From NCBI GenBank assembly GCA_016218805.1, contig JACRCW010000142.1:1-36071 (forward strand): a stretch of DNA of 36,071 nucleotides. Reading direction: 5' to 3'. A program made the position numbers and the translations under genes. How positions within the stretch are numbered: the stretch's first letter is position 1; every line of letters begins with the position of its first letter. The DNA is from Deltaproteobacteria bacterium. GTDB taxonomy: Bacteria > Myxococcota > JACRCW01. The notes beneath the pieces are model-generated. The model made no database searches and had not been told where the DNA came from. It saw nothing but the letters and a program-made list of their open reading frames with translations. Of this stretch, positions 8,402 to 36,071 are shown piece by piece.

Positions 8402-10099
8402 ATGGGCCCGATGGACCTGTTGCACCGCGTTGCGCCGGGTCGCCCCGCAGCCCTGGCGCTGCTGTTGGCCGCGCACGCGGCCGGTTGCGCCACCTACCAG
8501 GACCACATGCGCGCGGGGCGCTATGCCACGGCGTGCGCCATGGTCCGGGACACCCCGGACGAATCCCTGTTCCGCACCTGGGTCCAGGAACACTGGACCA
8601 CGCACGTGGCGCGGGTCCCGCGTGAACAGGTGGAACAGATGCTGGGCGGCCCGGTGGCCGGCTACGGCGTGGGCCTGGCGCTGTACGAAGTGACGTCGGA
8701 AATCCCCGGCGGCCGGGTCAGCCTGCAGCCGCCTGCCGGCGCGCTGCGGCCGCATGAACTCATTGCCCTCATGCAGCCCCTGGTGCTCCCGGACGAGCCG
8801 GTGCTGCCGCCCGGCCCCCTGGACGTGGCGGACTTCCAGCCCGCCGCACCGCCCGCGCGCGAGGAGGCGCGCAGCTCGTCGGGGTCGGGGCTGATGGAGG
8901 CGGCGGGCTCGCTGCTGGGGGCGTTCTTTGACGTGGGGCGGGTGGTGGGTGCGGTGGCCATGCTGCCCGCGGCGCTGACGGTGGGCATCACCGTGGGAAG
9001 CATGGAGGTGTTTGTCCACGGGTTGGGCGGCGTGCAGAAGTGGACCGGCGCGCTGGGCGGGACCTACGTGCCGCCGCCACCGGCCTCCAGCCCCGTGTTT
9101 GACGTGCCGGTGTTCCGGACGCGGTCTCCCAAGCCGCAGGGCCGCGCGGACGCGCTGCTCACCGCGGAGGAATACGAAGCGCTGGTGGCGACCCGGCGCG
9201 CAGCCTGGGAGGAGCGCAGCGCCGCCGTGGAGGCGGAGCGCCAGCGGCGGTTGGAGTTGGGCAACCGCCTGGGCGGGCTGGTGTCCTGCCGCGTGGACGG
9301 ACCGTGCCGGCTGGTGGCGGTACCCGGCAAGCACACGGTGGACGCCAGCACGTCCCACGTCCAGGGCGACGATTGGTGCGAGACCTACGGGTTGACGCGC
9401 GAACTGGATTTTCCGCCGGTGGCGGAGCCCGGCCCACCGTGGCCGGCCCCGCGCGGCGAACCGGCGATGGTGCTGGAGGACGCATCCGCGCCGGCGTGGG
9501 CGCAACTGGAGGCGGTGACCACGGACCTGCCCTGGCCCACGGCGACGGCGGCGCTTGGGGCGGAGGGCCTGCTGTGCCAGGTGAGCCTGCGCAAGGCGGC
9601 CTGGGAGCGCGGCACGCCGCCGGCGCTCACGGTGCGCGTGACAACGGGGAGGGAAACGCCGCGGGTGCAGCGCTGGCACCTGGGCACGGTCCGCAAGACC
9701 ACGTCGTTTGTGGTGCCGGCCGCGCACCTGCAAGCGGGCGAGCGGTTGCGCCTGGGCTTTGCGGACCCGGTCACCCAGCGCGGCCTGGGCGGTGGGATGG
9801 TGGAGATGACGGGGGCGCTGCCGCTGGTGGTGGCGAGCCCGGCGGTGGAGGCGCGCTGCACGGCGCTGCCGGCCGACGCGCTGGCGGCGGCAATCACGGC
9901 GCGGGGCGCGCGGATGGACGCCGCGTTGGACGCGCTGGACGCTGCGCTGCAGGCCAGGGACCCCGACCGCGTGGCCCGGTCACGCGCCGCGGCGCGCCGG
10001 GCGCTGGTGGACCTGGCGCAGCACAGCGGGTGGGTGGCGCCGGCGCTGGCGGAGCGGTGGGCGCGGTTCACGCGCGTGGACCCGGCGGAGCGGCGCTGA
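8402..10099 (+). CDS. Hypothetical lipoprotein
   Basis: Long ORF directly after rpmE with host-like codon usage; hydrophobic stretch followed by AAGC lipobox-like motif. Confidence 0.65.
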   Translation: MGPMDLLHRVAPGRPAALALLLAAHAAGCATYQDHMRAGRYATACAMVRDTPDESLFRTWVQEHWTTHVARVPREQVEQMLGGPVAGYGVGLALYEVTSEIPGGRVSLQPPAGALRPHELIALMQPLVLPDEPVLPPGPLDVADFQPAAPPAREEARSSSGSGLMEAAGSLLGAFFDVGRVVGAVAMLPAALTVGITVGSMEVFVHGLGGVQKWTGALGGTYVPPPPASSPVFDVPVFRTRSPKPQGRADALLTAEEYEALVATRRAAWEERSAAVEAERQRRLELGNRLGGLVSCRVDGPCRLVAVPGKHTVDASTSHVQGDDWCETYGLTRELDFPPVAEPGPPWPAPRGEPAMVLEDASAPAWAQLEAVTTDLPWPTATAALGAEGLLCQVSLRKAAWERGTPPALTVRVTTGRETPRVQRWHLGTVRKTTSFVVPAAHLQAGERLRLGFADPVTQRGLGGGMVEMTGALPLVVASPAVEARCTALPADALAAAITARGARMDAALDALDAALQARDPDRVARSRAAARRALVDLAQHSGWVAPALAERWARFTRVDPAERR

Positions 10100-10105
10100 A
10101 GCGCC

Positions 10106-10324
10106 TCAGGCGTGCGGCGGGGCCAGGTGTTCGGTGTAGCCCGGATTGCGGTGGTTCTGCCCCGGGTTGTGGGCGTCCCAGCAGGAATCCGAGCAGAAGT
10201 AGAGCTGGAAGCGCTTGCGGTTGCAGGTGGACACCACGCACTTGAGGTAGGCCCCGCCATACGGAATGGGCTTCTTGCACACGCTGCACTTGCTCCAGGC
10301 GGTGGTGGGGTCGGGCGCGGTCAT
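10106..10324 (-). CDS. Small Cys/His-rich protein resembling a stand-alone ZZ-type zinc finger
   Basis: CxxC..I....Y.KC.4.C.....FCxxxC...H....H spacing; GAGG upstream of ATG; fills the gap between two plus-strand genes. Confidence 0.75.
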   Translation of the reverse strand: MTAPDPTTAWSKCSVCKKPIPYGGAYLKCVVSTCNRKRFQLYFCSDSCWDAHNPGQNHRNPGYTEHLAPPHA

Positions 10325-10443
10325 GCGTGGGCCTCAATGAGGTGTGGGAGGCTACCACGCGCGGGGAAGTGAGCCAGGTCCGGTGTTCCCTCTGGTAGAA
10401 CGCTGCACAGGAACCGTTGCGTGCCGCGGCACGTGGAGGATGC

Positions 10444-21193: not shown

Positions 21194-21514
21194 CTAGAAC
21201 GGCACGTCGTCGCTCGGAATATCGCGACGCGCCAACCACGCTCCATCCAGTTCCACCAGCTGCCTCGGCGCGACACCGAGCGTCCTGACGGCCTGCCCGC
21301 TGGGCTGGTTCGCGTCCACGTAGGTCATCACCAGGCAGCCATCGGGGCCCACTTCGGCAAACCACTCCTCGCATACCGCCCATGCGCGCTCCCGCACGCC
21401 CTTGGTCATGTGCGGCGCCGTATATACGCCCGGTGCGACCTCGAGCATGCAGGACGCGAGGAACCCGCGGAAACGCTCGGGCACGTTGCGCGTGACCACC
21501 ACCGTCATGCTCAT
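21194..21514 (-). CDS. cas2: Type I-E Cas2
   Basis: MTVVVTRNVPERFRGFLASCMLEVAPGVY...VELDG; ATGA overlap with cas1 stop. Confidence 0.93.
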   Translation of the reverse strand: MSMTVVVTRNVPERFRGFLASCMLEVAPGVYTAPHMTKGVRERAWAVCEEWFAEVGPDGCLVMTYVDANQPSGQAVRTLGVAPRQLVELDGAWLARRDIPSDDVPF

Positions 21515-22380
21515 GGCGCCTGCGCCTCCAGTAGCGCCTTGATCCGGTCGATCATTGCCGGAACCACCGCTTCGTCGCGGAGCATCCGGCCCGCGGCCCG
21601 CCGGGCGGTGCGCTCCAGCGGTTCGCGAGCATCCGACTGGTGCTGTTTCACGGCCCGGAACGCCGCGGGCAGCGCCACGGTCTCGCGAAAGAGGTCGGCG
21701 ATGTCCAGGCAGAAGCTGTTGGCGGAATCCTCGTGGATGAAGCCCAACTGCGGAATCGTGGATGTCGCCGCAACAGCAATCATCGCTGCGGACTTGATGG
21801 CGGTGGACGCGTGGTTGAGCGCCTGGTTCACCTTGTCTGCGGCCTCCGGATCTTCGCGGTCGTAGGCGCGACGCGTCCAGTCCACCCCGTGCTCCTGGGC
21901 GAGGCGCTTGTACATCGTCTTCACGCGCGCGCCTTCGATGCCGCGGAGCACCGCAATGTCGGTGGAAGGAAGGACTTCTCCGAGGCGCCACGCGTACATC
22001 CGCCGCGCCAGGGTCACCCGTCTCTCCTTGTCCGCCCACGCCTCCACCTGCCTGCGGGCGAGAGCGGACTCGTCTGAACCGAAGGGCATGGATGCGTAGA
22101 ACCGGACGCCGTCATCGCCAGTGGCCACCAGCCCCGTGCCATGCCGCGCCATCAGGCGGAGTGCGTCGTGACTGACCGTAGTACCCGGGCCCATCAGGAA
22201 ATTGGTGATTGTCTGGAACGGCAACGCGTAGTCACCTGACGGGAGTTGGCCGCCACCCGGCGTCTTGAAGCGGAGGGTGCCGTCTTCCACGTAGAGGTTG
22301 CCGTGGGTCAGCCAGATGCAGCCGTGGCGGTCCGAGTGCGGAATGCGGGCCGTTTCAATCCCCAGCCGCCCCTTCAGCAA
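21511..22380 (-). CDS. cas1: Type I-E Cas1
   Basis: GPGTTVSHDALRL, LRGIEGARVK, NQALNHA, LGFIH....FCLDIADL; TTG start. Confidence 0.95.
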   Translation of the reverse strand: MLKGRLGIETARIPHSDRHGCIWLTHGNLYVEDGTLRFKTPGGGQLPSGDYALPFQTITNFLMGPGTTVSHDALRLMARHGTGLVATGDDGVRFYASMPFGSDESALARRQVEAWADKERRVTLARRMYAWRLGEVLPSTDIAVLRGIEGARVKTMYKRLAQEHGVDWTRRAYDREDPEAADKVNQALNHASTAIKSAAMIAVAATSTIPQLGFIHEDSANSFCLDIADLFRETVALPAAFRAVKQHQSDAREPLERTARRAAGRMLRDEAVVPAMIDRIKALLEAQAP

Positions 22381-23195
22381 GACATCCTCGGGGGAACCGG
22401 CACCAGCATTCCGAACCCGAACGCGCGGTGGCGCCCGACGCCGCGCGTCAGCAACGCACGGAACGCGGCAGAGTCCTTCACCTCAAGCACACCTTCCATG
22501 TGGACGTCCGGCCGCTCCAACCGGTGACCGGGGCGGTTGCCCGCCTTGTCCGGCAACTCGCGCCGGTACAGGCGTTCACCCAGGATGCCGGTCAACTTGA
22601 ATGCCCTGACCGCCACCCCGTCGTGCCAGGGCTCGCGCGCCTGGCCTGGCCTGCTGCCAAGCTGCAACTCGAACCACTTCCGGTACACGTCGTCCTTGGA
22701 GGGGACGGGCTTGCCCATCTCGGTGGCGCGCAGGCGTGCGTGCAGCCAGGCGTCCATCTCGCGGCTGACCTCACGCTCGCGGCCGGTCTTCTTGCTCTTG
22801 TGCGGGGGCCGCGGGTTCTTCCCCTTCATCACGCTCCGCACAATCGGGCACGCGCGCAGCTCGAAGCCAACCAGGTCACCCACCTCAAACGCAGGCACCG
22901 GGCGGGACTTCAACTCGCCCAGGTCAACGAGGTCCACTGTGTCGGGGTTGGCGTACTTGGACGCATGCTCCCGGAGCGAGTCATCCGGCAGCGGACTGTA
23001 CGCCCATACTTCAAGGTGAGACGTGGAGCGCGCCCTCGGGTTCACGCGAAACGGCACCGGCGCGTGGTCCTGCCACACCGCGGCAAGCGCGCCGTGCACG
23101 GCGTACCCGGTGTCCACGTCGCGGCCCTGGCGCTTGGCCAGGGACATCAGGAGGTCCTTGCGGACGCCGAGACGAACCAGGTTGAGCGGCGTCAT
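22374..23195 (-). CDS. cas6e: Type I-E Cas6e (Cse3/CasE)
   Basis: GY.VH N-terminal motif, FELRACP, C-terminal G-loop GVGRHRAFGFGML. Confidence 0.93.
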   Translation of the reverse strand: MTPLNLVRLGVRKDLLMSLAKRQGRDVDTGYAVHGALAAVWQDHAPVPFRVNPRARSTSHLEVWAYSPLPDDSLREHASKYANPDTVDLVDLGELKSRPVPAFEVGDLVGFELRACPIVRSVMKGKNPRPPHKSKKTGREREVSREMDAWLHARLRATEMGKPVPSKDDVYRKWFELQLGSRPGQAREPWHDGVAVRAFKLTGILGERLYRRELPDKAGNRPGHRLERPDVHMEGVLEVKDSAAFRALLTRGVGRHRAFGFGMLVPVPPRMSC

Positions 23196-23485
23196 GGGGC
23201 GCTCCGATGGGTCACGATGCCGCGTGCGCGCAATCCGTCCGCGCAGAACTCGAGGACATCGCCCCAGTTCAGCGAACGCCCTCCGGCTCCAACTGTCGCG
23301 CTCGCGAAGAACTCCGGGGAGGACAGACGCTGGCCGAGGCCACCGATGGCAATGACGGGTTTGAAATCCACGATGACATGGACGCCGTCATCGTAGTCGA
23401 TTCCAACGGTCAGCTCGGCGCCATGGAGTTGCATCGACCTGATGCGGGTGTTCATGGCCGGGAGAGCGATGTTGGATGCACACAT
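23192..23485 (-). CDS. DUF2442-like small protein inside the cas operon
   Basis: YDDG...VDF..VI..GG....L..PEFF....V..GGRSLNWGD.LEFCADGL pattern; own GGAG RBS; stop overlaps cas6e ATG. Confidence 0.78.
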   Translation of the reverse strand: MCASNIALPAMNTRIRSMQLHGAELTVGIDYDDGVHVIVDFKPVIAIGGLGQRLSSPEFFASATVGAGGRSLNWGDVLEFCADGLRARGIVTHRSAP

Positions 23486-23497
23486 GGTCTATCTCCC

Positions 23498-24211
23498 TCA
23501 CGAAGCCGCGGGCTGTTTCAACATCCCGTGTCGCATCATGCGCCGCCCCACGTGGACATGGTTGCGCCAATCGCGCTCGTCAGTGACCGGCACGATCTCG
23601 TTGGGTTCCGGGGCGCCCTCTGCGCCGTCAAACCACCATGCTGGCACGGGCCACCCTGCCCCCGAGCGTTTTGGCATGGGGACCGACGCAAGAGCAGCCA
23701 GGAGGTGGCCGGTAGCCTTGCCGACAATAATTGGCCCGCCGGGCAGGCAGCACTTTCGACCAAGGAACAGAGGGCGCGCCGGGTAGCGGATCGCGTCAGC
23801 GACTTCCGGCGTCGATGGACCACCACCGCCGGTCAGGGTCAGGGCCACCGTGTGCACGGAATCGGCCCAGTAGTCGCGGAACCGCTCGGCCGTCTCGTGC
23901 CTCTTGTCGCGCACCACCGGTCGCCCCCAGGTGGTCCAAGCTTCGGACATGAAGTCCTGTGCCAGGTTCGCGGTCTGGTAATCCGTGATGCGCGTGCCCA
24001 ACACGTCCGCCCTCGATGCGTACTGGATGCGCTCCTGCAGCGCGTCGAGCCGCCCGAACTCGCGGTGGTCCCAGCCCAGCGCGTTGGCGAGCAACCCTGT
24101 CAACATGGAGAGCGCTGGAAACGGCTGGATCACGCCGAACTGGTCGACGGTCGGCGCACCGAAGCTCACCAGGGGCGCGTCAAATCTGAGCAGCAGCACG
24201 TTCCCCATCAT
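23498..24211 (-). CDS. cas5: Type I-E Cas5 (CasD)
   Basis: LLLRFDAPLVSFG, FP..S.LTGLLANALG, DYQT, LFLGRKCC; ATGA overlap with cas7 stop. Confidence 0.94.
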   Translation of the reverse strand: MMGNVLLLRFDAPLVSFGAPTVDQFGVIQPFPALSMLTGLLANALGWDHREFGRLDALQERIQYASRADVLGTRITDYQTANLAQDFMSEAWTTWGRPVVRDKRHETAERFRDYWADSVHTVALTLTGGGGPSTPEVADAIRYPARPLFLGRKCCLPGGPIIVGKATGHLLAALASVPMPKRSGAGWPVPAWWFDGAEGAPEPNEIVPVTDERDWRNHVHVGRRMMRHGMLKQPAAS

Positions 24212-25692
24212 CCATTCCCGGCTTCGCAGGTGACCTGCGCCGCCACCCAATTGGCAAGTTCCCCCATCCCGTGTGCGTTGCCCTTCGGGACGCTGAGACT
24301 GGTCGCAAGGTCACTTGAACGCCGGACCATGAGCGCGCGGCCGCGCGGGGGCTCGAAGTTCGCATCGGAGTCCAGGACCTCCTCCCTCAGCGCCTTGTAT
24401 GTCCGCTCGAGCAGCTCGCCCGCCTTCTCGTCGGGGCGAACGGGCGACAGGAACGCATTGGCAAACGTCCTCGGCTGGGCGTCACCGGCTTCGGCCATCA
24501 GCAAGTGGGCCGCGGCATGTGGCGCCGTGGAGCCGAGCTTGGCACCGGGGGTTACGGTCGCCAGCATGTGAGTGAGGTTGTGCAACACCCGCCCCGCGAG
24601 CGCAGCGTCGCCGCTGAGGTTGTCCACGAGCAGGCGAACGTCCACCGCCACGTACGAATAGAACAGGCCGCTGGTCAGCTCCTGCGCGTTGATGTGATCG
24701 CTCCCGGCGTCGCCGTGTTCGAGGTTGCTCATGGCGCTGAAGTAGTCGCTCTCCGCCTGTTCTCCGTGCACGGTGAACGCGTGCGCGACGTGAATGGCGG
24801 CGTCCCCGCGTGCGAAGAGATCGCCGGTGACCATGCGGCCGAACAGCGCGGCGCTGAGGCCCATGTTGGCATGCGATGACTGCCGGAGGCCCTTCTTGCG
24901 CCTGTCCTCTTGGCCGGGGGCCTTCATCGCCTCCAAGTTCTTGGCGTTATTCTTGTCTTTGAGCCAGCCCAGAAGGCGGTCGGCGGTCTTCTCGGCAGGC
25001 GGCCACTCAGCGGGCTTCTCCTTCCCCCCCTGCGCGAGCTCGCGCGCCAAGCTAAGCAGGAACGTCACTTCGGCGCGCCCCAGGACGACGACCTCGGCGG
25101 TCTTGATTTCGCCGGGGGGCTCGCTCTCGGCCACCACCGGCGCTACGGCCGCCCTTGGCTTTCCACTTGTGCGGGCGGGTTTGTCCGCCACCGACGCTTC
25201 CGGCCCATCCTCAGGCGCTTGTTCCGGGTCGACCTGATAGTCCTCCTTCGTCTCTTCGGGCTCGTCCTTCCCCGTCAGGAGCTTCTGCGCCCGCTTGGTG
25301 CGCTTGTCCGCCCCCTTCTTGGCCGTGTCCGTCCCGACCAAGAGCAACGCCGCAACGTGCGCTGCCGCGTGGCGTGCGTTCTCCAGCGGCGCGCCCTCCG
25401 CGACAAGCGGGTCGACGATCTTCTGCTGGAAGATGAGTCGCGAGCGCAGCGAATCATGCTCGGGCACGGTGTCCGCGTTCGTTCCCTTCAGGCCCTCCAC
25501 GCGCCACAACGAGTGCTCGTCGGCATAGGTCCGCCAGTGCTTCTTCAGGCACTGGGAAGAGATCCTGGTCCGCATCACGCCGCCGAACGGCATCCGCTTG
25601 GCGAAGCCGGCATCGTCGCGGTTCAAGAGGCTCGCCGGGTACGACGTCAGCACGTGGAACTGGATGAAACGCGCCTGCTGGTTCTCGGTCAT
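24208..25692 (-). CDS. cas7: Type I-E Cas7 (Cse4/CasC) with a long charged insertion
   Basis: LLNRDDAG.AKRMPFGG..RTRISSQCLK, ALFGRMV, VAHAFTVH....ESDYF; 494 aa from ATG 25692. Confidence 0.95.
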   Translation of the reverse strand: MTENQQARFIQFHVLTSYPASLLNRDDAGFAKRMPFGGVMRTRISSQCLKKHWRTYADEHSLWRVEGLKGTNADTVPEHDSLRSRLIFQQKIVDPLVAEGAPLENARHAAAHVAALLLVGTDTAKKGADKRTKRAQKLLTGKDEPEETKEDYQVDPEQAPEDGPEASVADKPARTSGKPRAAVAPVVAESEPPGEIKTAEVVVLGRAEVTFLLSLARELAQGGKEKPAEWPPAEKTADRLLGWLKDKNNAKNLEAMKAPGQEDRRKKGLRQSSHANMGLSAALFGRMVTGDLFARGDAAIHVAHAFTVHGEQAESDYFSAMSNLEHGDAGSDHINAQELTSGLFYSYVAVDVRLLVDNLSGDAALAGRVLHNLTHMLATVTPGAKLGSTAPHAAAHLLMAEAGDAQPRTFANAFLSPVRPDEKAGELLERTYKALREEVLDSDANFEPPRGRALMVRRSSDLATSLSVPKGNAHGMGELANWVAAQVTCEAGNG

Positions 25693-26207
25693 CGGGTCCG
25701 CCTCTCCCGAGCCGGCCGCGCCGGCTCCGTATCCAGATTCAAAACCGTTCGGGGCCACGCCACGCCCTCTTGCAGGACCGCCCTCACCGAGCGCGCAGAG
25801 GGGTCAAGATGGACCCCGCCGCTGGCCAACCAGTGAAACGGACCATGCGAATGCGGCCGCCGGGTCAGCGCGTCAAGTTCCGGCGCATCTTTCAGGAGCC
25901 ACGCCTTCAGCCAGCGCACCTTCTGCAGGATCTCGGCGGCATTCGAGGTGCCGGCCGGGTGAACCTCGACCCAGACGGCAACCTCCTTCCGCCCGTCGGC
26001 CACGTAGCCGAACCCGTAGTCCCAGCGTGCCGCGTTGGGCCTGGCCTCCCGCGTCGCGCGATCCAAGTCCAGGCTACCCGTGATCCGTCTCCGTCCGGTG
26101 CGAACGTGGGCGCTGTCCGGCCCGAGCGCCCGCAACCCCGGCTTGGTGCGGTCTCTCACCGAAGGCGTCGCATCCACGGCTTGGACGAACTCGGACGCCA
26201 CGCTCAC
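25689..26207 (-). CDS. Hypothetical ATPase partner, putative PD-(D/E)XK-like nuclease (RWDY...EVH variant)
   Basis: GTGA overlap with ATPase stop and ATGA overlap with cas7 start; SLDLD...RWDYGFGY.....VWVEVHPA...KVRWLK. Confidence 0.65.
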   Translation of the reverse strand: MSVASEFVQAVDATPSVRDRTKPGLRALGPDSAHVRTGRRRITGSLDLDRATREARPNAARWDYGFGYVADGRKEVAVWVEVHPAGTSNAAEILQKVRWLKAWLLKDAPELDALTRRPHSHGPFHWLASGGVHLDPSARSVRAVLQEGVAWPRTVLNLDTEPARPARERRTR

Positions 26208-27349
26208 GCCCCCTGCCGCCACGCGCGGGCCGCCACGCGGGAAACCACATCGCTGGTGCTGGAGGCGAACCCAGTCAGGCCGCCCCAGGTGCCCTCCCGT
26301 TCGTCGATGGCACCGGGGTCCAGCGCTGAGATGTCCTGGACGTGTCCATCCTGACCGAAGTGGTGAACGCGGATGTCCAGTTCCAGCATGCGCTGGGCGG
26401 CCGGCGTCATTCCGGCCGCGGCGGGTTCATCAAACAACGCCAGCACGTCCCTCGCCACGCCACCCTTCTGACGAAACACGTGTACCGCCCAGAGGAGGTC
26501 CACCACCGTCGACGAATGGGTGGAAAGACAAACGCGGTACCCGCGGTTCAACAACTCAAGCAGCAGCACCAGGCAGGTCGTGATGCCCCTCGGGTGCAAG
26601 CCCGCCTCCAACTCCTCGAGCACCACCCAGCTCACGTCATCCAGACGGCGCTTCTTCTTGCTGGGCAGCAACTCCAGGAGCGCGAGCAGCATCGGAACAA
26701 ACTCGCGCTGCCCAGTGGACCAAGCCGTCACGGGCAACCCGGGCGCCCCGGCGCGCCCAAGCATCAGGCGCTTGCGGCCATTGCGCTCCACGTTCAGCGA
26801 AAAGCCGCCAAAGATCTCCCGCGACAGCGCCTTCCTCACCGGCTCCTTGAGGCGCTGCTCCCGCGGGAACAGGACATCCCCGGCACGCGCGAGTTGCTCC
26901 GCCACCACCCGCACGCGCTCGCTGAACTCGCGCAGCACGTACGGATCACCCGCGCTGAACTCGCCGAACGGCTTAGGCCAGCCCTGCGTCAGTGACAGGA
27001 CCCGCTGCGCTGGGACGTAATAGACGGACGCTGCTTCGCTACCCTTTCGACGCCGCGCCAGGCTGCGCGGACCGTGCTTGCGCCCATCCCAGCCCACGCG
27101 GGTCGCCCGGGTGAAGAGTTGGTGCATGCCCTCGCCGAAGTAGAGGTCCATCAGGCCGGGACCCGCAGCGTCCCACTCGAACCCGTAGCGACCGAGCATT
27201 TGCTGGACGGCCCCCGTGTCGACGAGAAGCTTCATCAACTGCAGCGTCACGCTCTTCCCCGTGGCCTGTGGCCCCACGAACACCGTGAGGTCACCAAAGC
27301 GGATGTCCGCCTGCTTCACCGGGCCGAAGTTGCGGAGTGCGAATCTCAT
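26204..27349 (-). CDS. Soluble ABC-family ATPase (AAA_15/AAA_21-like, defence type)
   Basis: LRNFGPV, Walker A GPQATGKS, YVPAQR, signature STGQRE, Walker B LEELEAGLHP, STHS. Confidence 0.9.
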   Translation of the reverse strand: MRFALRNFGPVKQADIRFGDLTVFVGPQATGKSVTLQLMKLLVDTGAVQQMLGRYGFEWDAAGPGLMDLYFGEGMHQLFTRATRVGWDGRKHGPRSLARRRKGSEAASVYYVPAQRVLSLTQGWPKPFGEFSAGDPYVLREFSERVRVVAEQLARAGDVLFPREQRLKEPVRKALSREIFGGFSLNVERNGRKRLMLGRAGAPGLPVTAWSTGQREFVPMLLALLELLPSKKKRRLDDVSWVVLEELEAGLHPRGITTCLVLLLELLNRGYRVCLSTHSSTVVDLLWAVHVFRQKGGVARDVLALFDEPAAAGMTPAAQRMLELDIRVHHFGQDGHVQDISALDPGAIDEREGTWGGLTGFASSTSDVVSRVAARAWRQGA

Positions 27350-27861
27350 GACACCTTCTTCTCCGGCTTGCTGAAATAGCCGCGCGCCAGCGCCCGGCGC
27401 ACGCCGTCCGCTCCCTCCGTGTCCGCGGTGAGGATGAGGGAAGCGGCCCAACTCCAGTCCACCGCCTGCCCCTTGACCTTGAGATACCGCGCAAGCCGGG
27501 GCAGCTCATCCAGCAACTGGTCCCGGTTCATGCGCATCAACCGGACGAACCGCGCCTCCGAGTAGCGCACCTCCGCGAGCACCCGCCCAAGCCCGGCGCC
27601 TCGCCGATGAAGACTGCGCAAGTGCGCCAGCCCGGCAAGGATCGCCGCCCAGCGCTCTTCGTGGTCCGTGCGCGCTGGGTCAGAGGATGGAAGCAGGTCG
27701 TCCAGGTACAGCGCCACCGCCTTGAAGAACGCGGGACCGGGTGCAGCTTTCGCACGCATCCGTCTCAACTCCGCCAACTCGCCCGGCCCGAAGGGGCCGT
27801 GCTGCCCCATCGCAGCTCCGAGTCGGTGCACCGCGGTTGTGGACGCTGATTCGCCGCTCAT
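27346..27861 (-). CDS. cse2: Type I-E small subunit Cas11 (Cse2/CasB)
   Basis: PGELAELRRM, LGRVL....YSEARFVRL, VDW, ALARGYF; directly after cas8e. Confidence 0.88.
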   Translation of the reverse strand: MSGESASTTAVHRLGAAMGQHGPFGPGELAELRRMRAKAAPGPAFFKAVALYLDDLLPSSDPARTDHEERWAAILAGLAHLRSLHRRGAGLGRVLAEVRYSEARFVRLMRMNRDQLLDELPRLARYLKVKGQAVDWSWAASLILTADTEGADGVRRALARGYFSKPEKKVS

Positions 27862-29387
27862 GGGTGCACCTCCTCGAAAGCGCTGTTTCGCTTCTCGCGT
27901 TCAGCGAAGTAGTCCTTCAGCTTGGCCTGCGCGCGCGACTCGAAAACGCCGCGCGCCTTTGCCGCCGCCCTGAGACGGCGGGCGTCTGGTATTGGCATTC
28001 CGTGCTCGGCGGCATCGAGAATGGCCTCGGCGAGGTGATAGAGGCGCTTCTGCCAGGCGACGTTTCGTTCCCGCTCAGGAAGTTCAAACTCCTGCCAGAG
28101 CGCCTCGAAGAAGATGGGATCCACCGCGCGGTCCAGCCCCTGGTAATACGTGTCCGGGACGGACCCGCCGCATGCGAGTGCCTTCAGCGCGGGCCGCAGG
28201 ACGTCCTTCGACACCAGGTCCACCAACTTGATCCTCTTGTTGGCCGTCTCCGACAGCGACTCGCGCTGCTCCGCGAACAGCCGGCGTTTGCGGGCGTCCA
28301 ACCGAATCCGACGCTCGTGGAGTCCTTCAGTCCTCCCATCGCCGCGGGTCAAGGCTGCCCCCAACCAGATCATTTCGGGGGCGTCCCATGGCTGGACGGT
28401 CGCGGCCGCTGACGGAACCCAATCCGAACCCCACAACAAGGCCGAAGTCATCTGGTAAGTGAATCCTTTGTAGGCGATGCACAGTGCCTTTCCGTCCTTC
28501 CGCGCCACGGGGATCCACGGGTCACCGACGTTCCCCTTGGCAGCGTTCGCATCGAGGCGCTTCGCTGCGGTCGGAGTGAACCGCACGACCAAACCTCCGT
28601 CCCAGGCGACCCGAACACGTCGGCACACCTCAAGAAAGTGCGGCGCGCACTCCGACAGGTTGCTGCTGTGCTCCCCGTCCCAGGGTTCCAGCCAGAGCAG
28701 GCGTGTCCCCATCATCGCCATTCGCGCCTGACGTGCCAGGTCATCGAAACCCGCCAGCATCACGCGCACATCGCGCACGAAGAAGTCAGATGGGCTTGGG
28801 CCGGGCGCCATCGCGACCCGCGGCCGGTTGGCGGAACCCCCATTCATTCTTGCGATGCCATAGAGCCTGGAACCGGAGTAGCCCTGCATCGTCTGCAACG
28901 TCATCAGTGCAAGGACCCACGCCTCGATTTCGCCCGGAGCCACCGTCCCTTCCTTGAGATCATGGCCCTTGGCCGAAACCAGCATGTCCAGCTCGTCGGG
29001 CGTCAGCTTCTGTTCGAACCCGGTCAGGCTCCCTTCCAACACCGGCGGCTGCAGGAACGCCGGCTTCGTCAGGTCATCCACCACCAGGCACCACGGCTCC
29101 ACCGCGCCGTCCGTCAGTCCGATGATGAGGTCGCGCCATGCTCCCTCAACCTGCTTGACGTCCGTCTTCCCCGCCTTCTGAAGCGCCAGCGCCGCCAACT
29201 GCGCGAGGAACATGCACCACGGGTGGTACTGGTGCGCGCGAACCTTCGGAAAGTCGACGACGTCGCCCGCCCCCAGTGCGGCGAGCAGCCCCGGCATGGT
29301 CGCTGCGTGACGGACGCGGGCGCCGTCCCGCCAATGGAGCAGTGGTTCATCGAGAAGGTTGAACCGGCACCGGTCAGGCGTCGCCAT
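27858..29387 (-). CDS. cse1: Type I-E large subunit Cas8e (Cse1/CasA)
   Basis: FNLLDEP N-terminus, RAHQ, PAFLQPP, YGIARMNGG, DPW; 509 aa; position in operon. Confidence 0.88.
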   Translation of the reverse strand: MATPDRCRFNLLDEPLLHWRDGARVRHAATMPGLLAALGAGDVVDFPKVRAHQYHPWCMFLAQLAALALQKAGKTDVKQVEGAWRDLIIGLTDGAVEPWCLVVDDLTKPAFLQPPVLEGSLTGFEQKLTPDELDMLVSAKGHDLKEGTVAPGEIEAWVLALMTLQTMQGYSGSRLYGIARMNGGSANRPRVAMAPGPSPSDFFVRDVRVMLAGFDDLARQARMAMMGTRLLWLEPWDGEHSSNLSECAPHFLEVCRRVRVAWDGGLVVRFTPTAAKRLDANAAKGNVGDPWIPVARKDGKALCIAYKGFTYQMTSALLWGSDWVPSAAATVQPWDAPEMIWLGAALTRGDGRTEGLHERRIRLDARKRRLFAEQRESLSETANKRIKLVDLVSKDVLRPALKALACGGSVPDTYYQGLDRAVDPIFFEALWQEFELPERERNVAWQKRLYHLAEAILDAAEHGMPIPDARRLRAAAKARGVFESRAQAKLKDYFAEREKRNSAFEEVHP

Positions 29388-30012
29388 CGGGCAAATCCTT
29401 GTTGGGTGTCATGCCGGCGCTCCAAAGGAGCGCCCGGAAGGACTGCTCAAGGCGGTTGCGGTCGGCGTTGCTGAACTGTGCGGCGGCGCGGGTCACTTCG
29501 CGCCCGCCGACAACGTCGACCTTGACGGTCGGCTCGCTCCTGCTCCGCATCCGGGAGAACAGCGCCACCTGGACGACGGCGTGCTCCTTTGCCGGCATCA
29601 CCTCCAGCACGTCGTCTCCATCCCGCCATTGGTCGTGGTGGGTGTCACCGTGCGCGGGTTTCCCGCCCGCACGCCCGTATGGATGAAAGTGCCTAATCAT
29701 AGAGTCGAGTTGTTCCTCGGCGTCTCGAGCCTTGCCTTTCTTCCCCTTTCTTGGATCATCCGTGCCCTTCAACTCCACAAACACGACGTGGCTGACGCCA
29801 TCCAACTCACCGATGAGAACGCTCTCCGGGACCCGGACTCCGGGGCCCCACTTCACATGTTTCGCGTCGTCCAGCTGATACGCCACGAGGGGCTCGTCGT
29901 GCGTGACCACGAGAACCTGCTCGGTCCGGCCCCCGCGCACTTCCACGGCATACCTCGCCCTCGTCCGGGTTCGGCCGGGCTGGGGCCTCCTGAGTTCCGC
30001 CAGCCTATCCAT
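29374..30012 (-). CDS. Hypothetical ATPase partner, putative PD-(D/E)XK nuclease
   Basis: PES...VVFVELKG......A.EQL fits a PE...ExK core with downstream Q helix; overlaps both neighbouring genes. Confidence 0.65.
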   Translation of the reverse strand: MDRLAELRRPQPGRTRTRARYAVEVRGGRTEQVLVVTHDEPLVAYQLDDAKHVKWGPGVRVPESVLIGELDGVSHVVFVELKGTDDPRKGKKGKARDAEEQLDSMIRHFHPYGRAGGKPAHGDTHHDQWRDGDDVLEVMPAKEHAVVQVALFSRMRSRSEPTVKVDVVGGREVTRAAAQFSNADRNRLEQSFRALLWSAGMTPNKDLPDGDA

Positions 30013-31258
30013 GTCGCCTCCGAGCGCGCCGCGCCCGCGTCACGCCGATCAGGTTGAGGGCCCCTGAGAGTTCGTCTGAAACCCTTCCCAGCTCCGTCTC
30101 ATCAAGGAACCAGGTTCCTTCCTGGACGAGCGAGCGCGGCGGCGCACCTTCTTCATCAAACGCATAGACGGCCAGCTTCTGCCCTGGCACGCGTACCCAC
30201 GGGTCAGGCACTCCTTCAATGCTGTCCGCGCCCAATTCCGCCGCCTGCACCAAGTTGTTCACCGCGTAAAGGATCGTCAGGGAGTGGGTCGTCATTACCA
30301 CCCGGAACCCGTGACGGACGAGGAACGCGAGAATCTCCACCATGGCCACTTGGGCCGATGGATGCAGATGGATCTCCGGCTCTTCGACGAAGACTGTGAA
30401 ACGTTTGGAAATCGCCTTTTGCTGCCGCAGAAGGAACAGTGCCTGCGCAATGTGTGCAATCGGCCAGTTCGCGCGCTGGCCGGAGGACGCCATGTCGATA
30501 TCGAATTGCCGGCGTGTTGGGCCACCGAACGTCCACTTCCATTGTGAGCCATACTTGGCCGCAGCGCCCCGAAGGGCGGTTTCGGCGCGATCAGCGACCC
30601 ACTGGGATTCCGCGGGAAGCCCACCGGCGGCAGCGGTGCTCAGCGCCGCAGCAGAGGTGTCCAGCCAATCTGAAAACAGCCCATAGGTCAGCGGGAGGTT
30701 CAACAGCTTTCCCGCTGCCGCGCGCTTCAACTGCGAGACAATCAGACGCTCGGTGGGGATGAACACCGCGTGCCTGCGGGGCTCCCGGGGCATGGCGACC
30801 GCGGCATTCACCAACTCACGAAGCGCCTTGGCCGGCAAGATCTGTCTGGTGGCGGACTGAGCGTTGAACCGCAATGCCTTGTCCTGAGGGATGTCCGGAC
30901 GGTCAAAGGGCCTGCCTCGCCTCCATTCGATGGTCGCGGAAGGGTTTGCGAAAGTTCCGAATGCGCGGTCGCTGCTTCGAAGGCGATCCAACAAATACCT
31001 GACAATCACGTTGGCCCCACGCCCGTCGGATTCTTCTTGTGCTCCCGCCGCAAAAGCAGAGAGGTAGGGCAGTTCTTCAAAGAAGTAGAGACTCTGGGCG
31101 ACCAAAGACTTTCCAGTGCCCTGCGGACCCACGAGAATGGTGAACGGCTTTATGTGCAGAGTGCACGGTGCGACCACTGGCCCCAGCGCACCTTTCGCGA
31201 TGCGAAACACGTCGGTGTCGCGCCCAACCTCACCGCCGTTCTTCAGCACTGATGGCAT
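30005..31258 (-). CDS. Second soluble ABC-family ATPase (AAA_15/AAA_21-like)
   Basis: LGPV, Walker A GPQGTGKS, FIPTER, signature ASSGQR, Walker B VEEPEIHLHP..Q, TTHS; AAGGAG RBS. Confidence 0.9.
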   Translation of the reverse strand: MPSVLKNGGEVGRDTDVFRIAKGALGPVVAPCTLHIKPFTILVGPQGTGKSLVAQSLYFFEELPYLSAFAAGAQEESDGRGANVIVRYLLDRLRSSDRAFGTFANPSATIEWRRGRPFDRPDIPQDKALRFNAQSATRQILPAKALRELVNAAVAMPREPRRHAVFIPTERLIVSQLKRAAAGKLLNLPLTYGLFSDWLDTSAAALSTAAAGGLPAESQWVADRAETALRGAAAKYGSQWKWTFGGPTRRQFDIDMASSGQRANWPIAHIAQALFLLRQQKAISKRFTVFVEEPEIHLHPSAQVAMVEILAFLVRHGFRVVMTTHSLTILYAVNNLVQAAELGADSIEGVPDPWVRVPGQKLAVYAFDEEGAPPRSLVQEGTWFLDETELGRVSDELSGALNLIGVTRARRARRRHG

Positions 31259-31339
31259 TGCGGACTCCTTTGGCGGTGGTATTTGAAGCGGGCGGGGTCG
31301 CCGACTCTGTGCTCATTTTCACGATGGAACCGGCTCGGA

Positions 31340-34018
31340 TCAGACTTGGTCATCGTCCACCTCCCCGCGGCCACTCCGTTCCTTCCGCAAGCCCCAGCGG
31401 TCATACACGAACCTCGTCCCCCCAAACGAGAACAACAGCCGGTCCGGTCCGGCCGCGACGTCCTCGGCGCGGCAGTCGTCGGGGTCTGCATCCGCGCACC
31501 AGTGTGCGCGAACGGTAAACTCCTCTACCAGCCCGCCAAGCGGACTCCGCCACGGCTCCGACAACTCCACCCTTCGGTCCATCAGCCCCAACCGGCTGCG
31601 AACTTTCTTGTCGCCACCCGAAGGAAACCCCGTCTCGGCGTAACTCGTTGACCAGTCCACCAGGTTCAACTCGGCAACGCGCGCTTCGGCCGCGTAGACG
31701 CCTTCCACTTTCGCGCCGTGGGCCTGCCATTCCCCGCCCAGCGCGGCAGCCAGTTCGCGGAGGCGCGCCTCATCCACGCATGCCTCCACCAGCCCGCGGC
31801 ACATCTGCGGGATGCGCCACACCGGGTCCCGCTCCACCGCCCTCCAGGTCGCCTCCAGGACGCGGAGGTCTTCGTAGACCTCGCCGCCGAGGCCATGGTG
31901 ATAGGTCGCCGCATGGTCCGACCTGATGAACCGCCCGAGATCGCGCTCGGCAGGCACGACGACCGTCGCAGCGGGACGCGAGAATGGGGGCGCGCGGTCC
32001 GTCCGCGCGTGCCGGTGCAGGCGCCCGAGTCGTTGGAGCAAGACGTCGACCGGGGACAGGTCCGTGAGCATAAAATCCGCGTCCAGATCCAGGCTCTGCT
32101 GGATGGTCTGGGTCGCCACCGCGACCCGACCCGCAGCCTTCCGACCTTTGCCGAACTGCGCCTCCAGCGCCTGGTCCAACAGGACGCGGTCCGACCTGGC
32201 GTAGCGACCGTGGTGTAGCGCTGGCGCCCCGCCGCAGCGGAACAACACGTCCGCGCAGGCCGTCTCCGCGGCCAGTGCTTCCAGCGCGCGTTGGGTCTCC
32301 ACCGCCTCGGCCACTGAGTTCCGGACGACAAGGACAGCCGCCCCGTCCCTCGCTGCTTGGAGCGCCGCGCCTGCCACGGCAGCCGGGTCCTCCAGCCACG
32401 GGGCGGTCGACAATGACAGTTCTCTCTGTGAGACCCCATGGTCCTGCTCGACGGTCTCGACCCGAACGGATGCCCCACGGTGCACCACCACCGGGTAGTC
32501 GGCAGCTTCTGGCGGAAGCGCGCCGGCCACCGCATCCGGCCACAACAGCGCGTTCCAGGTCCGTTGGCCCAGCGTCGCGCTCATCAGCAACGCGTGGCCT
32601 CCTGCCGCGGCGTGGTGCGCGAGCACGCAACGCAACACGTTGGTCATGTACGCATCCGAGGCGTGCACTTCGTCCACCACCAGGAGGTGACGAAGGAGCG
32701 CCGTGGCGCGCAGGTGCGCGTGCGGCACCGTCAGCCCCGCCAGCAGTGCCTGGTCCACCGTGCCCACCACGATGGTGCCGGCCATGTAGCGCTTGCTGTT
32801 CTCGACGGCCCAGCCGCGATGCCGGGTCGTTCGCGAGGACGCGGCGAGGTCGTCCGGCCACAACACGCCGAAGTCCGGCAATCGGCGTGCGTCCTTATCG
32901 TCGACGCGCAGGTACCCGGGGACTGCCAAGACCACCGGCGGAGCCGGTCCCGTGCTGAACGCGCGCTGAACAGCATCGCGGACGCGTTGATGCATCTGCG
33001 TGGCCGACGTGCGGGTGGGCAGCGCGAAGTACAGGCCGTCCACCTCGCGCGCGGCGAACAGCGCCATGAAATGCGCCAACGCGCCTTCGGTCTTCCCGGA
33101 CCCGGTCTCGGCTTCCAAGATGGTGATGCTGGGGCCGCCGCTTGCGGGAATTCGCAGCATCGCCTCTTGGGCCGGCCGCGGGGGGTGCATGCAGATGGCC
33201 TCAAAGGGGCGCCGCTGAGCCGCTTCGCCGCGCCACGCTTCCGCGTCCAACCCGTTGAGGCGCAGGGATTCCTGCGCCGCACGCACGCTCGTCAACCAGC
33301 GCTGCTGCGCATCAGGGGACTCGCTGAACGGAAAGCAACCCGGCTCGCGGTTGCTCCCGAGCCAGTCCGCCAGCATCACCAGGCCGGCGAACGCGTGCTC
33401 CAGCGCCGTCGACTGCGGAAGCGGTTCCGCCTCGGCCGAGAACGCCCGGGGCAACCACTGGCGGAGGCTGGCCGCCAGGCGGCGCACGCCCTCCCAAGCC
33501 GTCCGGCGGTAGGGGCCCTGGTCGTCCCATTCGTGAAACGCCGCTGCCGGGAGACCGCTGAGATTCGTCGGCTGACCGTGGTGCCCAATCGCAGCGATCA
33601 GCAGACGCGCGGCAGCGTCGGCCTCGCCGTCCGACGCGCCGAACCTCTCGATGTCCTTCCACGCGACCGCGTCGGAGAGCCGGCGGGTGAGGTCGGGCGA
33701 ACGGAACAGTCCGAGTGCCTCTTTCACATGCCCCGCAGTCCGCTCGAAGGGGGGAATGCCCTTCCGCTGGAACCCGTGGTTGTACTTCCCCAGGTCATGC
33801 AGCGCGGCCAACACCGCCAGCCGGTCGCAGTGGACCTCTGTCAGGTCACTCCATCCGCACAGCCGGGCGAGCCGCTTGCGCCAGATTGGCAGCGCCAACA
33901 GCGCCCGCGTGACGGCCGCCACATCACCGCAGTGGTGCTCCAACGGGTGCCACGCGGTGACCCGCCCCTGGTCATCCTTCTCAAGCTTGGCCCACCAATC
34001 GGTTGGCGTTCCCTGCAT
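31340..34018 (-). CDS. cas3: Cas3 HD nuclease-helicase
   Basis: WAK, LEHH..DV, LHDLGK, GHHG, ADWLGS; ETGSGKTE, DEVH, MSAT, QRLGRLHRH. Confidence 0.97.
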   Translation of the reverse strand: MQGTPTDWWAKLEKDDQGRVTAWHPLEHHCGDVAAVTRALLALPIWRKRLARLCGWSDLTEVHCDRLAVLAALHDLGKYNHGFQRKGIPPFERTAGHVKEALGLFRSPDLTRRLSDAVAWKDIERFGASDGEADAAARLLIAAIGHHGQPTNLSGLPAAAFHEWDDQGPYRRTAWEGVRRLAASLRQWLPRAFSAEAEPLPQSTALEHAFAGLVMLADWLGSNREPGCFPFSESPDAQQRWLTSVRAAQESLRLNGLDAEAWRGEAAQRRPFEAICMHPPRPAQEAMLRIPASGGPSITILEAETGSGKTEGALAHFMALFAAREVDGLYFALPTRTSATQMHQRVRDAVQRAFSTGPAPPVVLAVPGYLRVDDKDARRLPDFGVLWPDDLAASSRTTRHRGWAVENSKRYMAGTIVVGTVDQALLAGLTVPHAHLRATALLRHLLVVDEVHASDAYMTNVLRCVLAHHAAAGGHALLMSATLGQRTWNALLWPDAVAGALPPEAADYPVVVHRGASVRVETVEQDHGVSQRELSLSTAPWLEDPAAVAGAALQAARDGAAVLVVRNSVAEAVETQRALEALAAETACADVLFRCGGAPALHHGRYARSDRVLLDQALEAQFGKGRKAAGRVAVATQTIQQSLDLDADFMLTDLSPVDVLLQRLGRLHRHARTDRAPPFSRPAATVVVPAERDLGRFIRSDHAATYHHGLGGEVYEDLRVLEATWRAVERDPVWRIPQMCRGLVEACVDEARLRELAAALGGEWQAHGAKVEGVYAAEARVAELNLVDWSTSYAETGFPSGGDKKVRSRLGLMDRRVELSEPWRSPLGGLVEEFTVRAHWCADADPDDCRAEDVAAGPDRLLFSFGGTRFVYDRWGLRKERSGRGEVDDDQV

Positions 34019-34085
34019 GTCCCCGCCCCATAAGGCTTTTCCCGGTTACCGCCTCCCAGCACCTCTGCTTCGCGGCGCACACCTA

Positions 34086-34400
34086 CTCCGTGTCCAGGGC
34101 GCGGGCAACCCGTCCAAAACCCGCGGTCCACGCATGTCCTGCGGCATGAGTGACGGTGGGAAAGGCGCTGGGAACACGTGTCCTGCAGGCTTGAGTGTCC
34201 ACCGAAACTGTCAGGTCACGCGCGCCCCGCGGGTTCAGGCGCGTCACAACACCCGCGGGACGCGCACGTCCTGCGGGTCTGTGCGCGCCTGGAAGGCCGC
34301 CCTCCACGCGCGCCCGAGGAGTTTCTGCACGTCACTCAACGCGTTGGGTGCGCGTGTCCCGCGGCATTCTGCAGCCGCAGACCGCCACCCGGCGCGCACC
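34086..34400. repeat. Degenerate tandem array with 44-bp period, about 7 units, with internal dyad symmetry
   Basis: Core rCGCryG(T/C)CCyGCGG recurs with G(T/C)CC at 34092, 34136, 34180, 34224, 34268, 34312 and 34356; units 4 and 6 match at 28 of 44 positions by hand alignment. Confidence 0.75.
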
Positions 34401-34439
34401 TGCGCTGGGCCTTTGCCGGCTGCCTGATTGCCAACCGGT

Positions 34440-35132
34440 TCAAGCCGGCTGGGTCTCCGGCGTGGTGGTGACGGTGGTGCCTTCCGCGGCGTCCGTGCCC
34501 CCACCGCCGCGCCGCTTCTGAACGCGGAAAAACGTGTTGGCCCAGTCCCTGGGCAGACCGCGCTCCACCGCCCGGGTGACCAGCATGGCGTGCAGGCCGT
34601 CGCGCTCACGGGTGAGGTTGTCCACCAGTTCCTCTTCCGCAATGGCGGCCTCGCCGCGCACGTTGGCGGTGGACTTGGTCTGGGTGAGTGCGGCGTCCCC
34701 GGCCTTGGCCCACTTGAGCGTCTCGTCCTTGTGCGGGGCGAACAACGCCTCGGAGGCGCCCGCCCAGGCCAGGACCGTGTCCACCTGGGTGCGCAGCGCC
34801 TGCTTGCAGAATGACGTGATGGTGTGGGTGCCAAAGAACAGCTTCCAGCGCGCGGACTTGCGGTCCTTGAGGGCCAGGTCCAACTCAAGGCCGAACCTGT
34901 TGCACGCCGTGTCCAGCCGGGAGTTGGCAACGGCCCGGAGTGCATCACACTTGGAGGCAACTTCCCGCGCCCGCCGTTGCGCCGCCGCCACCGCGTCGAT
35001 GCTTGCAATCCAGCGGTCGGTGTGGGGCAACAGATCTGCGGAATCCGGGTCCGCCTCGAGCGCGGAGCGGGTGAAGAAGACCTCCTCCTCAAGCTCCGCA
35101 TGGGTGGCTGTCACTGTCAGCTTGCGCGGCAC
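34440..35132 (-). CDS. Hypothetical predominantly alpha-helical protein, 230 aa
   Basis: AGGAGG RBS before GTG; amphipathic helices, C-terminal ERGLPRDWANTFF motif and disordered tail; co-oriented with cas3. Confidence 0.8.
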   Translation of the reverse strand: MPRKLTVTATHAELEEEVFFTRSALEADPDSADLLPHTDRWIASIDAVAAAQRRAREVASKCDALRAVANSRLDTACNRFGLELDLALKDRKSARWKLFFGTHTITSFCKQALRTQVDTVLAWAGASEALFAPHKDETLKWAKAGDAALTQTKSTANVRGEAAIAEEELVDNLTRERDGLHAMLVTRAVERGLPRDWANTFFRVQKRRGGGGTDAAEGTTVTTTPETQPA

Positions 35133-35144
35133 GGCGTTCCTCCT

Positions 35145-35308
35145 GTGCGAAATGTTCGCGCCCCGCTAGTCCTGCGCCAGCGAGGCTGTCAAGCGGCTTT
35201 TACGGGCAGCGTGAAGCTGGTAGGGGGCAACTTCAGCGCCTGGATGGTGAACAGGTAGCCGTTGTTAGTTGTTCCCTTGTTGCCGAGGCTGCTCCATTTC
35301 GGCACAGA
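35145..35308. promoter_or_regulatory. CRISPR leader and divergent promoter region
   Basis: Non-coding, lower GC, abuts an intact first repeat; minus-strand TTGACA at 35192-35187 with only a weak -10; short inverted repeats at 35212-35236 and 35281-35304. Confidence 0.6.
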
Positions 35309-36069
35309 GGCTCCCCCGCGCACGCGGGGATGGACCCGTCGCCGGCGACCACGCCCGCCCACGCGGCCTGGCTCCCCCGCGCACGCGGGGATGGACCCTG
35401 GCACGCCTGGCGCCGGCCGCGGGTTTAGTTGGCTCCCCCGCGCACGCGGGGATGGACCCTGTGGGTGCGCGAGACACACTGCCCGCGATATGGCTCCCCC
35501 GCGCACGCGGGGATGGACCCAGGCGCCCGGCAGAAAAAGCTGAGCTCCGGGCGGCTCCCCCGCGCACGCGGGGATGGACCCTTCAAGCTGCGCGTCACGT
35601 GGGCGGCGTCACTGGCTCCCCCGCGCACGCGGGGATGGACCCCGGGGCGCGGCCCCGCCCCCGCCTGCCATCCGGGCTCCCCCGCGCACGCGGGGATGGA
35701 CCCCACGGGGGAGGTGGACATAGCGCGCAATGCGCGGCTCCCCCGCGCACGCGGGGATGGACCCTTATCTCAGATATCGTCAAAGAAGCAGAAACAGGCT
35801 CCCCCGCGCACGCGGGGATGGACCCTGCGCCATTGGCGTGACAGCGGAGGACCAGCAGGCTCCCCCGCGCACGCGGGGATGGACCCCCTGACTCTGACCG
35901 TCGTCGTCATGCTCGCACGGCTCCCCCGCGCACGCGGGGATGGACCCTGACAAGCGCCGCGCTCTGGCCTGCCACGTCGGGCTCCCCCGCGCACGCGGGG
36001 ATGGACCCCTGTCCACCACATCGCCAGGGCTGCTTGAGCCGGCTCCCCCGCGCACGCGGGGATGGACCC
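35309..36069 (+). CRISPR. Type I-E CRISPR array: 13 identical 29-nt repeats GGCTCCCCCGCGCACGCGGGGATGGACCC, 12 complete 32-nt spacers, truncated by window end
   Basis: Exact 61-nt period from 35309 to 36041; CCCCGC/GCGGGG hairpin; orientation by analogy to I-E repeats ending ATAAACCG. Confidence 0.99.
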
Positions 36070-36071
36070 GA

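Follow-up and report, generated by a model that had tools for sequence, protein, structure and literature searches.

A degenerate 44-bp palindromic array beside a type I-E cas operon, and its apparent pairing with a gene for a helical protein

The window, i.e., the whole stretch of 36,071 nucleotides analyzed here, contains a complete type I-E CRISPR-Cas system (Table 1). Between its CRISPR array and cas3 lie a gene for a helical protein and a degenerate repeat array, the latter in the interval from the stop of the 230-codon ORF to the start of cas3 (34019-34439). The cas operon (21194-34018) is broken three times by non-Cas modules. Its Cas7 gene (24208-25758) is long and encodes about 490 residues; a low-complexity insertion precedes the main Pfam match, which starts at ORF residue 214. 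Elsewhere in the window, the sequence outside the array that comes closest to the CRISPR repeat (22/29, positions 7751-7779) is located near the start of an FG-GAP repeat ORF and is probably due to chance. Two neighboring ORFs on the minus strand (252-890 and 1280-2017), for which no Pfam or NCBIfam family was found, have one segment of 142 bp (96% identity) and another of 91 bp (85%) in common (197-439 and 1545-1937). A contig from public DNA runs (four runs, one study) was identical over 29000-35334, possibly because it represents the source sample, and hence is not independent; the contigs of the four runs contained no joint that removes the gene and its array.

Table 1. Features in and around the interval between the CRISPR array and cas3.
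Feature	Position	Strand	Description
Degenerate palindromic array	34086..34410	.	Period 44 bp; seven units and trace of an eighth
Best unit with both linkers	34234..34294	.	61-bp near-perfect inverted repeat
Partner gene	34440..35132	-	230-aa all-helical protein of an unnamed family; conserved R/K and W/F
Ribosome binding site AGGAGG (35144-35139) and -35-like hexamer TTGACA (35192-35187)	35139..35192	-	Upstream of partner gene
cas3 (HD and helicase)	31340..34018	-	Starts about 70 bp past the array; not in the putative cassette
Rest of type I-E operon: cas8e, cse2, cas7, cas5, cas6e, cas1, cas2	21194..31258	-	Neighbor
Type I-E CRISPR array	35309..36069	+	Window includes 13 repeats (29 bp) and 12 spacers (32 bp); divergently oriented to partner gene
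AAA-ATPase and unknown gene pair	29374-31258		Inside cas operon
PDC-M56A/B pair	25689-27451		Inside cas operon; PADLOC E 1e-125 and 3e-40
Weak DUF2442-like ORF	23192-23485		Inside cas operon

A preliminary description of the locus, made from the sequence alone, had claimed about seven units at an exact spacing of 44 nt, and this periodicity is real. The autocorrelation of positions 34086-34400 was 0.47 at lag 44, 0.54 at lag 88 and 0.49 at lag 132, against a mean of 0.289 (sd 0.027) for dinucleotide shuffles (z 6.9). None of 2000 such shuffles matched the array at any lag between 20 and 99. The units start at 34119, 34163, 34207, 34251, 34295 and 34339, followed by a weak seventh near 34383, and a trace of a further unit is found near 34086-34102. 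Pairwise identity among the units is merely 34-64%, which is why standard repeat finders overlook the array; both Tandem Repeats Finder and an ungapped repeat finder left it undetected. None of the ORFs that cross the array resembles its flanking genes in codon G+C pattern, in agreement with the earlier statement that no credible ORF covers it, and an Rfam scan of 33500-36071 gave no match over the array.

Dyad axes occur each 22 bp, from 34132.5 to 34330.5. The array is therefore palindromic as first described, but most of its units are not good hairpins. The 12-bp stem reported at 34251-34278 (loop CGCA, one G:T pair) and its extension to 34234-34294 are both present, with folding z values of -5.3 and -8.2, respectively, whereas five other units folded singly were no better than shuffles (z -0.45 to +0.93). 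With one unit in six folding well, the array is not a series of hairpins. The core of the best unit contains three YGCR tetramers at a spacing of 9 bp, which amount to YGCR-N5-YGCR in two overlapping copies, and the long stem is explained by this arrangement of tetramers in the window units. The 61-bp inverted repeat far outfolds the neighboring units, to an extent that independent drift of half-sites fails to explain; correction by template switching, or a cruciform, could underlie its near-perfect symmetry.

The array occupies a site between cas3 and the CRISPR leader, and defense modules are embedded in the operon; we therefore considered a crRNA-like mini-array of the CreR/CreA type that is processed by Cas6e and represses a cas or toxin promoter. 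The 8-mer CGCGCACG is indeed common to the array center (34261) and the center of the CRISPR repeat hairpin, as had been pointed out, but it is a common sequence, with 3039 copies in the genome and 0.16 expected per 330 bp. The best match of the array to the 29-bp CRISPR repeat (16/29) is at background level, with 299 positions of the window scoring 16 and 148 scoring higher. The proposed comparison of the variable segments with nearby promoters also spoke against guide sequences. No exact match of at least 8 nt was found to 31259-31339 or 34019-34074, and the longest match between array and leader is a G+C-rich 10-mer that lies in the conserved core instead of a linker and has no flanking AAG, the PAM of type I-E systems. 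A search by exact matches found no spacer in the array that matches a promoter, and no crRNA-like mini-array controlling the modules embedded in the cas operon was found.

Arrays of this kind also occur away from Cas genes. When the Cas proteins of the window (type I-E queries) were compared with 35 loci encoding homologues of the 230-residue protein, with flanks of 0.7-12.7 kb, none of the loci gave a match, and conversely eight other cas3 loci (L034-L041) had no 42-44-bp array in their 1.5-kb flanks. We therefore regard the mini-array as scarcely credible, and Cas-linked readings in general are not supported. The comparisons indicate that the array is not CRISPR-derived and that its position in the cas leader resembles a site of insertion rather than the reason why the array exists. 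More generally, repeats found in a cas leader do not by themselves identify a crRNA-like mini-array.

The gene next to the array encodes a protein for which Pfam, NCBIfam and PADLOC gave no family and the PDB no sequence match. Its AlphaFold model (pLDDT 88, pTM 0.71) is all-helical, with helices of 48 and 59 residues, a disordered tail and no strands. Fold searches of the PDB and BFVD gave no match at E <= 0.001. VIA-align returned generic helical bundles, the best being the McpS ligand-binding domain (Z 9.3, rmsd 3.5, 181 aligned residues), with BAR domains at about 8, scores that fall inside the range that the tool calls a common arrangement; Nop, ParB and HTH proteins were not among the fold matches listed. 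Across 136 protein sequences, basic residues are conserved at R3, R53, R91, R95, K110, R159, R177, R195 and R203, as are several W/F positions, and the net charge of the protein is -1. No catalytic motif was seen. The Atlas placed a DUF6261-bearing cluster at a feature score of 0.87 to the protein, which is a lead only, and the DUF6261 profile (PF19775) matched neither the protein nor 60 relatives.

Relatives of the protein are numerous. A word-indexed search gave 15 at 44-51% identity and the full search 604 representatives at E <= 0.001, and the named hosts are mostly Myxococcota. No relative was found in viral contigs (single-protein query) or in plasmid and phage collections. A consensus scan ahead of the gene gave no full promoter site, and no terminator-like site was found between the gene and the array.

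To examine whether similar arrays occur at homologous loci, 35 loci were used, 32 from genome and metagenome contigs and three more from one genome; two weak or partial matches (L050, L054) were excluded. An array was called when a chain of units 42-44 bp apart scored at least 27, exceeded all 12 shuffles and lay within 480 bp of the gene. By this definition, 26 of the 35 loci had an array on exactly one flank (24 of 33 after merging two duplicate pairs), 21 downstream and five upstream of the gene, and the opposite flank passed in none of them. The nine remaining loci comprise five that lack a flank and four with both flanks (L025, L030, L032, L053). One locus (L008) has two further arrays, of periods 47 and 46 (1520-2020 and 9900-10420), in addition to a 43-bp array. 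In the window genome itself, five of six other profile hits adjoin a 42-43-bp array; two of these five paralogues are firm and three weak (hhalign 100, 97, 67, 58 and 20%). The upstream or downstream position does not cluster on the protein tree, with four changes against a shuffled mean of 4.7.

The surroundings of these loci were surveyed in 70 neighbor ORFs from 24 loci, selected from about 97 candidates by dropping short and array-overlapping ORFs. None belonged to a Cas, ParA, ParB or Y1 family. A defense- or toxin-antitoxin-type neighbor was present in 8 of the 24 loci as a raw count (Uma2, Abi_alpha, AbiEii, AHH, AAA_21, DUF433, PDDEXK_3 and HicB). Cassette ends, a target duplication or a mobilizing enzyme were not found.

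The same set of loci allowed us to compare two forms in which the palindromes might act, as RNA stems or as DNA sites. One possibility is that gene and array are co-transcribed and that the helical protein binds the array as a structured RNA, i.e., an RNA antitoxin or guide array comparable to type III toxin-antitoxin or TIGR systems. The lack of a terminator-like site between gene and array fits such a transcript, as does the folding of 34020-34440, which is better than that of shuffles (z -3.45) and includes one very stable 61-nt hairpin. Folding is about equal on both strands, however (z -5.9 and -6.7 for the window), as for any array of palindromes, and five of the six units are no better hairpins than shuffles. 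Covariation was examined in 18 of 26 aligned arrays (111 of 129 units), leaving out three near-duplicates and five arrays with weak dyads. Among 461 consensus pairs of dyad-related positions, 20 were compensatory, against 19.4 +/- 4.6 when arms were shuffled among units, and on the gene's strand G:T and A:C pairs were equally frequent (34 each). Because there is neither a compensatory excess nor a G:U bias, the half-sites appear to drift independently. The fixed orientation of array to gene that is expected of an RNA was also absent, with the same orientation in 10 and the opposite in 7 of the 17 clearly oriented pairs (among 253). We consider an RNA array distinctly unlikely, and the structured or processed noncoding RNA of the preliminary description is thereby disfavored. 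The palindromes behave like double-stranded DNA sites, of the inverted type expected for dimers.

Further evidence concerns inheritance and conservation. Likeness of array profiles correlated with protein identity over 23 loci (Mantel rho 0.39, p 0.0005), kin not being independent in this test; the correlation points to co-inheritance, not to binding. In close pairs, the homologous stretch includes the gene and extends through the complete array, with units matching by position, and it ends in the flanks. Array identity above chance was 0.42-0.75, compared with 0.01-0.47 at four-fold sites of the partner gene, and was higher in all five pairs; these are the five of eight pairs that aligned over at least 235 bp, the other three aligning only over 30-153 bp, and local alignment favors the array. 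Selection thus appears to act on the array. A tandem duplication in neutral decay would explain why the units are only 34-64% identical, but it is very improbable and largely refuted by a period kept at 42-44 bp across proteins of about 45% identity, as well as by array conservation above that of synonymous sites.

A common core was also apparent. The motif YGCR-N5-YGCR, picked after viewing the alignments, occurred 53 times in 23 arrays against 10.1 expected and seven times in the window against 0.5, whereas the spacing controls N4 (19 against 10.8) and N6 (13 against 10.9) were closer to expectation. The window array is an outlier in this set, with a period of 44 where its relatives have 42-43, and its whole-unit profile was not significantly like that of any of 22 relatives (best z 2.9). 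We also tried the idea of an autoregulatory half-site in the gene's own promoter, for which the 8-mer GTCCTGCG at about 35169 was the candidate. Over the 19 loci with a downstream array, the own core scored no better on the own promoter than on other promoters (mean rank 0.59), and the idea was rejected.

Taken together, the one-flank arrays in 26 of 35 homologue loci and the co-inheritance suggest that the array belongs to the adjacent helical gene and not to the CRISPR system. The link to the 230-residue protein and the phased sites for a dimeric protein, both among the options first put forward, thus gain in plausibility: pairing, the lack of an RNA-stem signature, free orientation, co-inheritance and conservation all favor putative protein-binding sites.

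The binder need not be the partner protein, since the genome contains many more arrays. Of its 49 non-triplet arrays, 39 have a period of 22, 43 or 44; they measure about 250-300 bp each, are mostly intergenic, belong to many sequence families and mostly have no gene of the helical family alongside. A shared host factor could therefore be the binder. A host nucleoid protein might then serve all 22-, 43- and 44-bp arrays, with the helical gene being regulated by the array or a mere co-traveler, and the absence of a known DNA-binding fold in the helical protein would fit this explanation. On the other hand, a private partner is the better fit to the presence of a single array per gene, which may be on either side of it, and to the tracking of protein likeness by array likeness, and the window array has no sister in the genome (score 110; next best 27.6). 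We judge a host factor unlikely.

Some of the other arrays do have sisters on separate contigs, with 87% identity over 262 bp for C93/C135 and 95% over 190 bp for C133/C78, and further sister sets are C137/C145, C108/C163/C128/C162 and C20/C64. Such copies at separate sites would be expected of REPIN-like miniature mobile elements that are spread in trans by a Y1 (RAYT-like) transposase, with the helical gene as cargo. At C54:78293-80079, three features follow each other on one strand: a DUF6261-like gene whose profile match is below cut-off, a 43-bp array whose core is palindromic, and a gene for Y1_Tnp (RAYT-like). This arrangement also fits mobile elements. Nevertheless, the isolation of the window array and the lack of Y1_Tnp among the 70 neighbor ORFs argue against this explanation, and an amplifying element would not need the unit-by-unit conservation seen in orthologues. 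A mobile element is in our view quite improbable.

The explanation that we favor, and hold to be on balance probable from sequence comparison, is a movable cassette of promoter, gene and array that is independent of Cas and recurs in myxobacteria-like genomes, and whose protein likely binds phased palindromic sites in double-stranded DNA. Dimers of the helical protein would bind palindromes spaced by four helical turns, all on the same face of the DNA, and bound dimers might join to form a protein-DNA platform of about 300 bp. We infer that it is the partner protein that binds, rather than a host factor, and that promoter, gene and array move together. The cassette would most likely have an architectural role, i.e., DNA holding, bridging or insulating; this is preferred over a promoter operator because arrays occur both upstream and downstream of their genes and the gene's promoter was not found to carry a cognate site. 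A point that counts against this explanation is that the candidate binder, judged from its sequence and model, has no recognizable DNA-binding fold and about neutral charge.

In the window, the cassette would have come to lie between the CRISPR leader and cas3 of an operon that already carried defense modules. The partner gene has a -35-like box in front of it and no terminator-like site behind it, so that transcription could plausibly continue through the array and into cas3. The bound array could then act as a roadblock 70 bp before cas3 and dampen its expression, which would be a local side effect and not the origin of the array.

A more far-reaching version is speculative, and we regard it as possible rather than probable. 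A long-helix protein would measure DNA by four turns and assemble on a co-evolving 300-bp array into a nucleosome-sized particle. Widespread, undescribed cassettes of this type would move between defense islands, set the expression of what follows (here the CRISPR-Cas operon) and serve solo arrays in trans, and their product would be the missing protein of the constant-length repeats discussed below. If the favored explanation is true, the protein represents a DNA-binding architecture without a recognizable DNA-binding fold. Because matched protein-array pairs of differing sequence are available, cognate versus non-cognate binding and phase dependence are directly testable, and the candidate partner is small and looks soluble.

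In type III toxin-antitoxin loci, the gene for an endoribonuclease toxin is preceded by near-identical repeats, which are followed by a terminator. Such a locus was rejected here in view of the divergent units, their downstream position in 21 of 26 loci, the lack of a terminator-like site and the lack of a match to a toxin family. The remaining comparisons draw on the accessible parts of the papers cited. CreR/CreA mini-arrays consist of a repeat-like (psiR) sequence and a spacer that matches a promoter beside a PAM (PMC12737573; bioRxiv 10.1101/2024.10.29.618823), the spacer matching a cas or toxin promoter at 9 or more PAM-proximal positions; exact matching found no such spacer in the window array. 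The resemblance is one of position, upstream of the cas genes within a type I CRISPR-Cas locus, whereas the array described here has no CRISPR-repeat-like sequence and its relatives occur without Cas. In TIGR-Tas systems, array units yield 36-nt RNAs with box C/D motifs that are bound by a Nop domain (PMC12045711). These systems also combine a small helical protein gene with a degenerate array of fixed period, but the arrays studied here differ by their period of 42-44, their palindromic cores, the absence of a common C/D-like motif (26 consensus lines, inspected by eye) and the absence of an RNA-type signature. A Nop domain was not detected in the 230-residue protein by Pfam.

REPIN/RAYT systems comprise palindromic extragenic repeats that are tied to a particular gene and are also found alone in the genome (PMC3116915). 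The gene-linked palindromic repeats and the similar solo arrays of the window genome resemble them, whereas the partner is no tyrosine transposase and the units are phased at four turns instead of forming hairpin doublets. Identity with REPIN/RAYT was rejected, as no Y1 transposase was found at the locus or the 24 loci surveyed and the window array has no near-identical copies.

The closest layout is that of sopC of the F plasmid, which has 12 direct repeats of 43 bp with an inverted-repeat core bound by SopB, encoded by the adjacent gene (PMC3177203). Repeats of about 43 bp with an inverted-repeat core next to a protein gene are found in both cases. The arrays described here differ in having 6-9 degenerate units, no ParB domain, no ParA partner and no relatives in plasmid or phage collections. 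A sopC/parS centromere (type Ia ParABS) was rejected on the basis of the missing Pfam or NCBIfam family, the strandless model and the lack of ParA and ParB in the 70 neighbor ORFs. A search of the genome (92% complete, 170 contigs) for ParB_N (PF02195) gave no match, which may reflect an assembly gap.

In the literature, thinly covered for subscription journals, no description of such a gene-array pairing was found, and the repeat tables of PMC8161180 and PMC6749651 could list arrays of this kind. The locus thus appears to represent an undescribed gene-plus-array element with a putative mechanism. Its nearest conceptual relatives are the intergenic repeats of constant length and variable sequence described by Subirana and Messeguer, of 20-21 and 52 nt in Bacillus, for which these authors propose a protein that polymerizes on DNA at a constant repeat size, 20-21 nt corresponding to two helical turns; the accessible portions of the two papers name no partner protein (PMC8161180; PMC6749651). 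The window genome is alike in having intergenic arrays of fixed length and variable sequence, with several families per genome. In contrast, the arrays described here have a period of 42-44, are more degenerate and palindromic, and are each paired with one specific gene. The helical protein can therefore be offered as a candidate protein for bacterial constant-length repeats, which were described without a function or binder in the accessible part of that work (PMC8161180).
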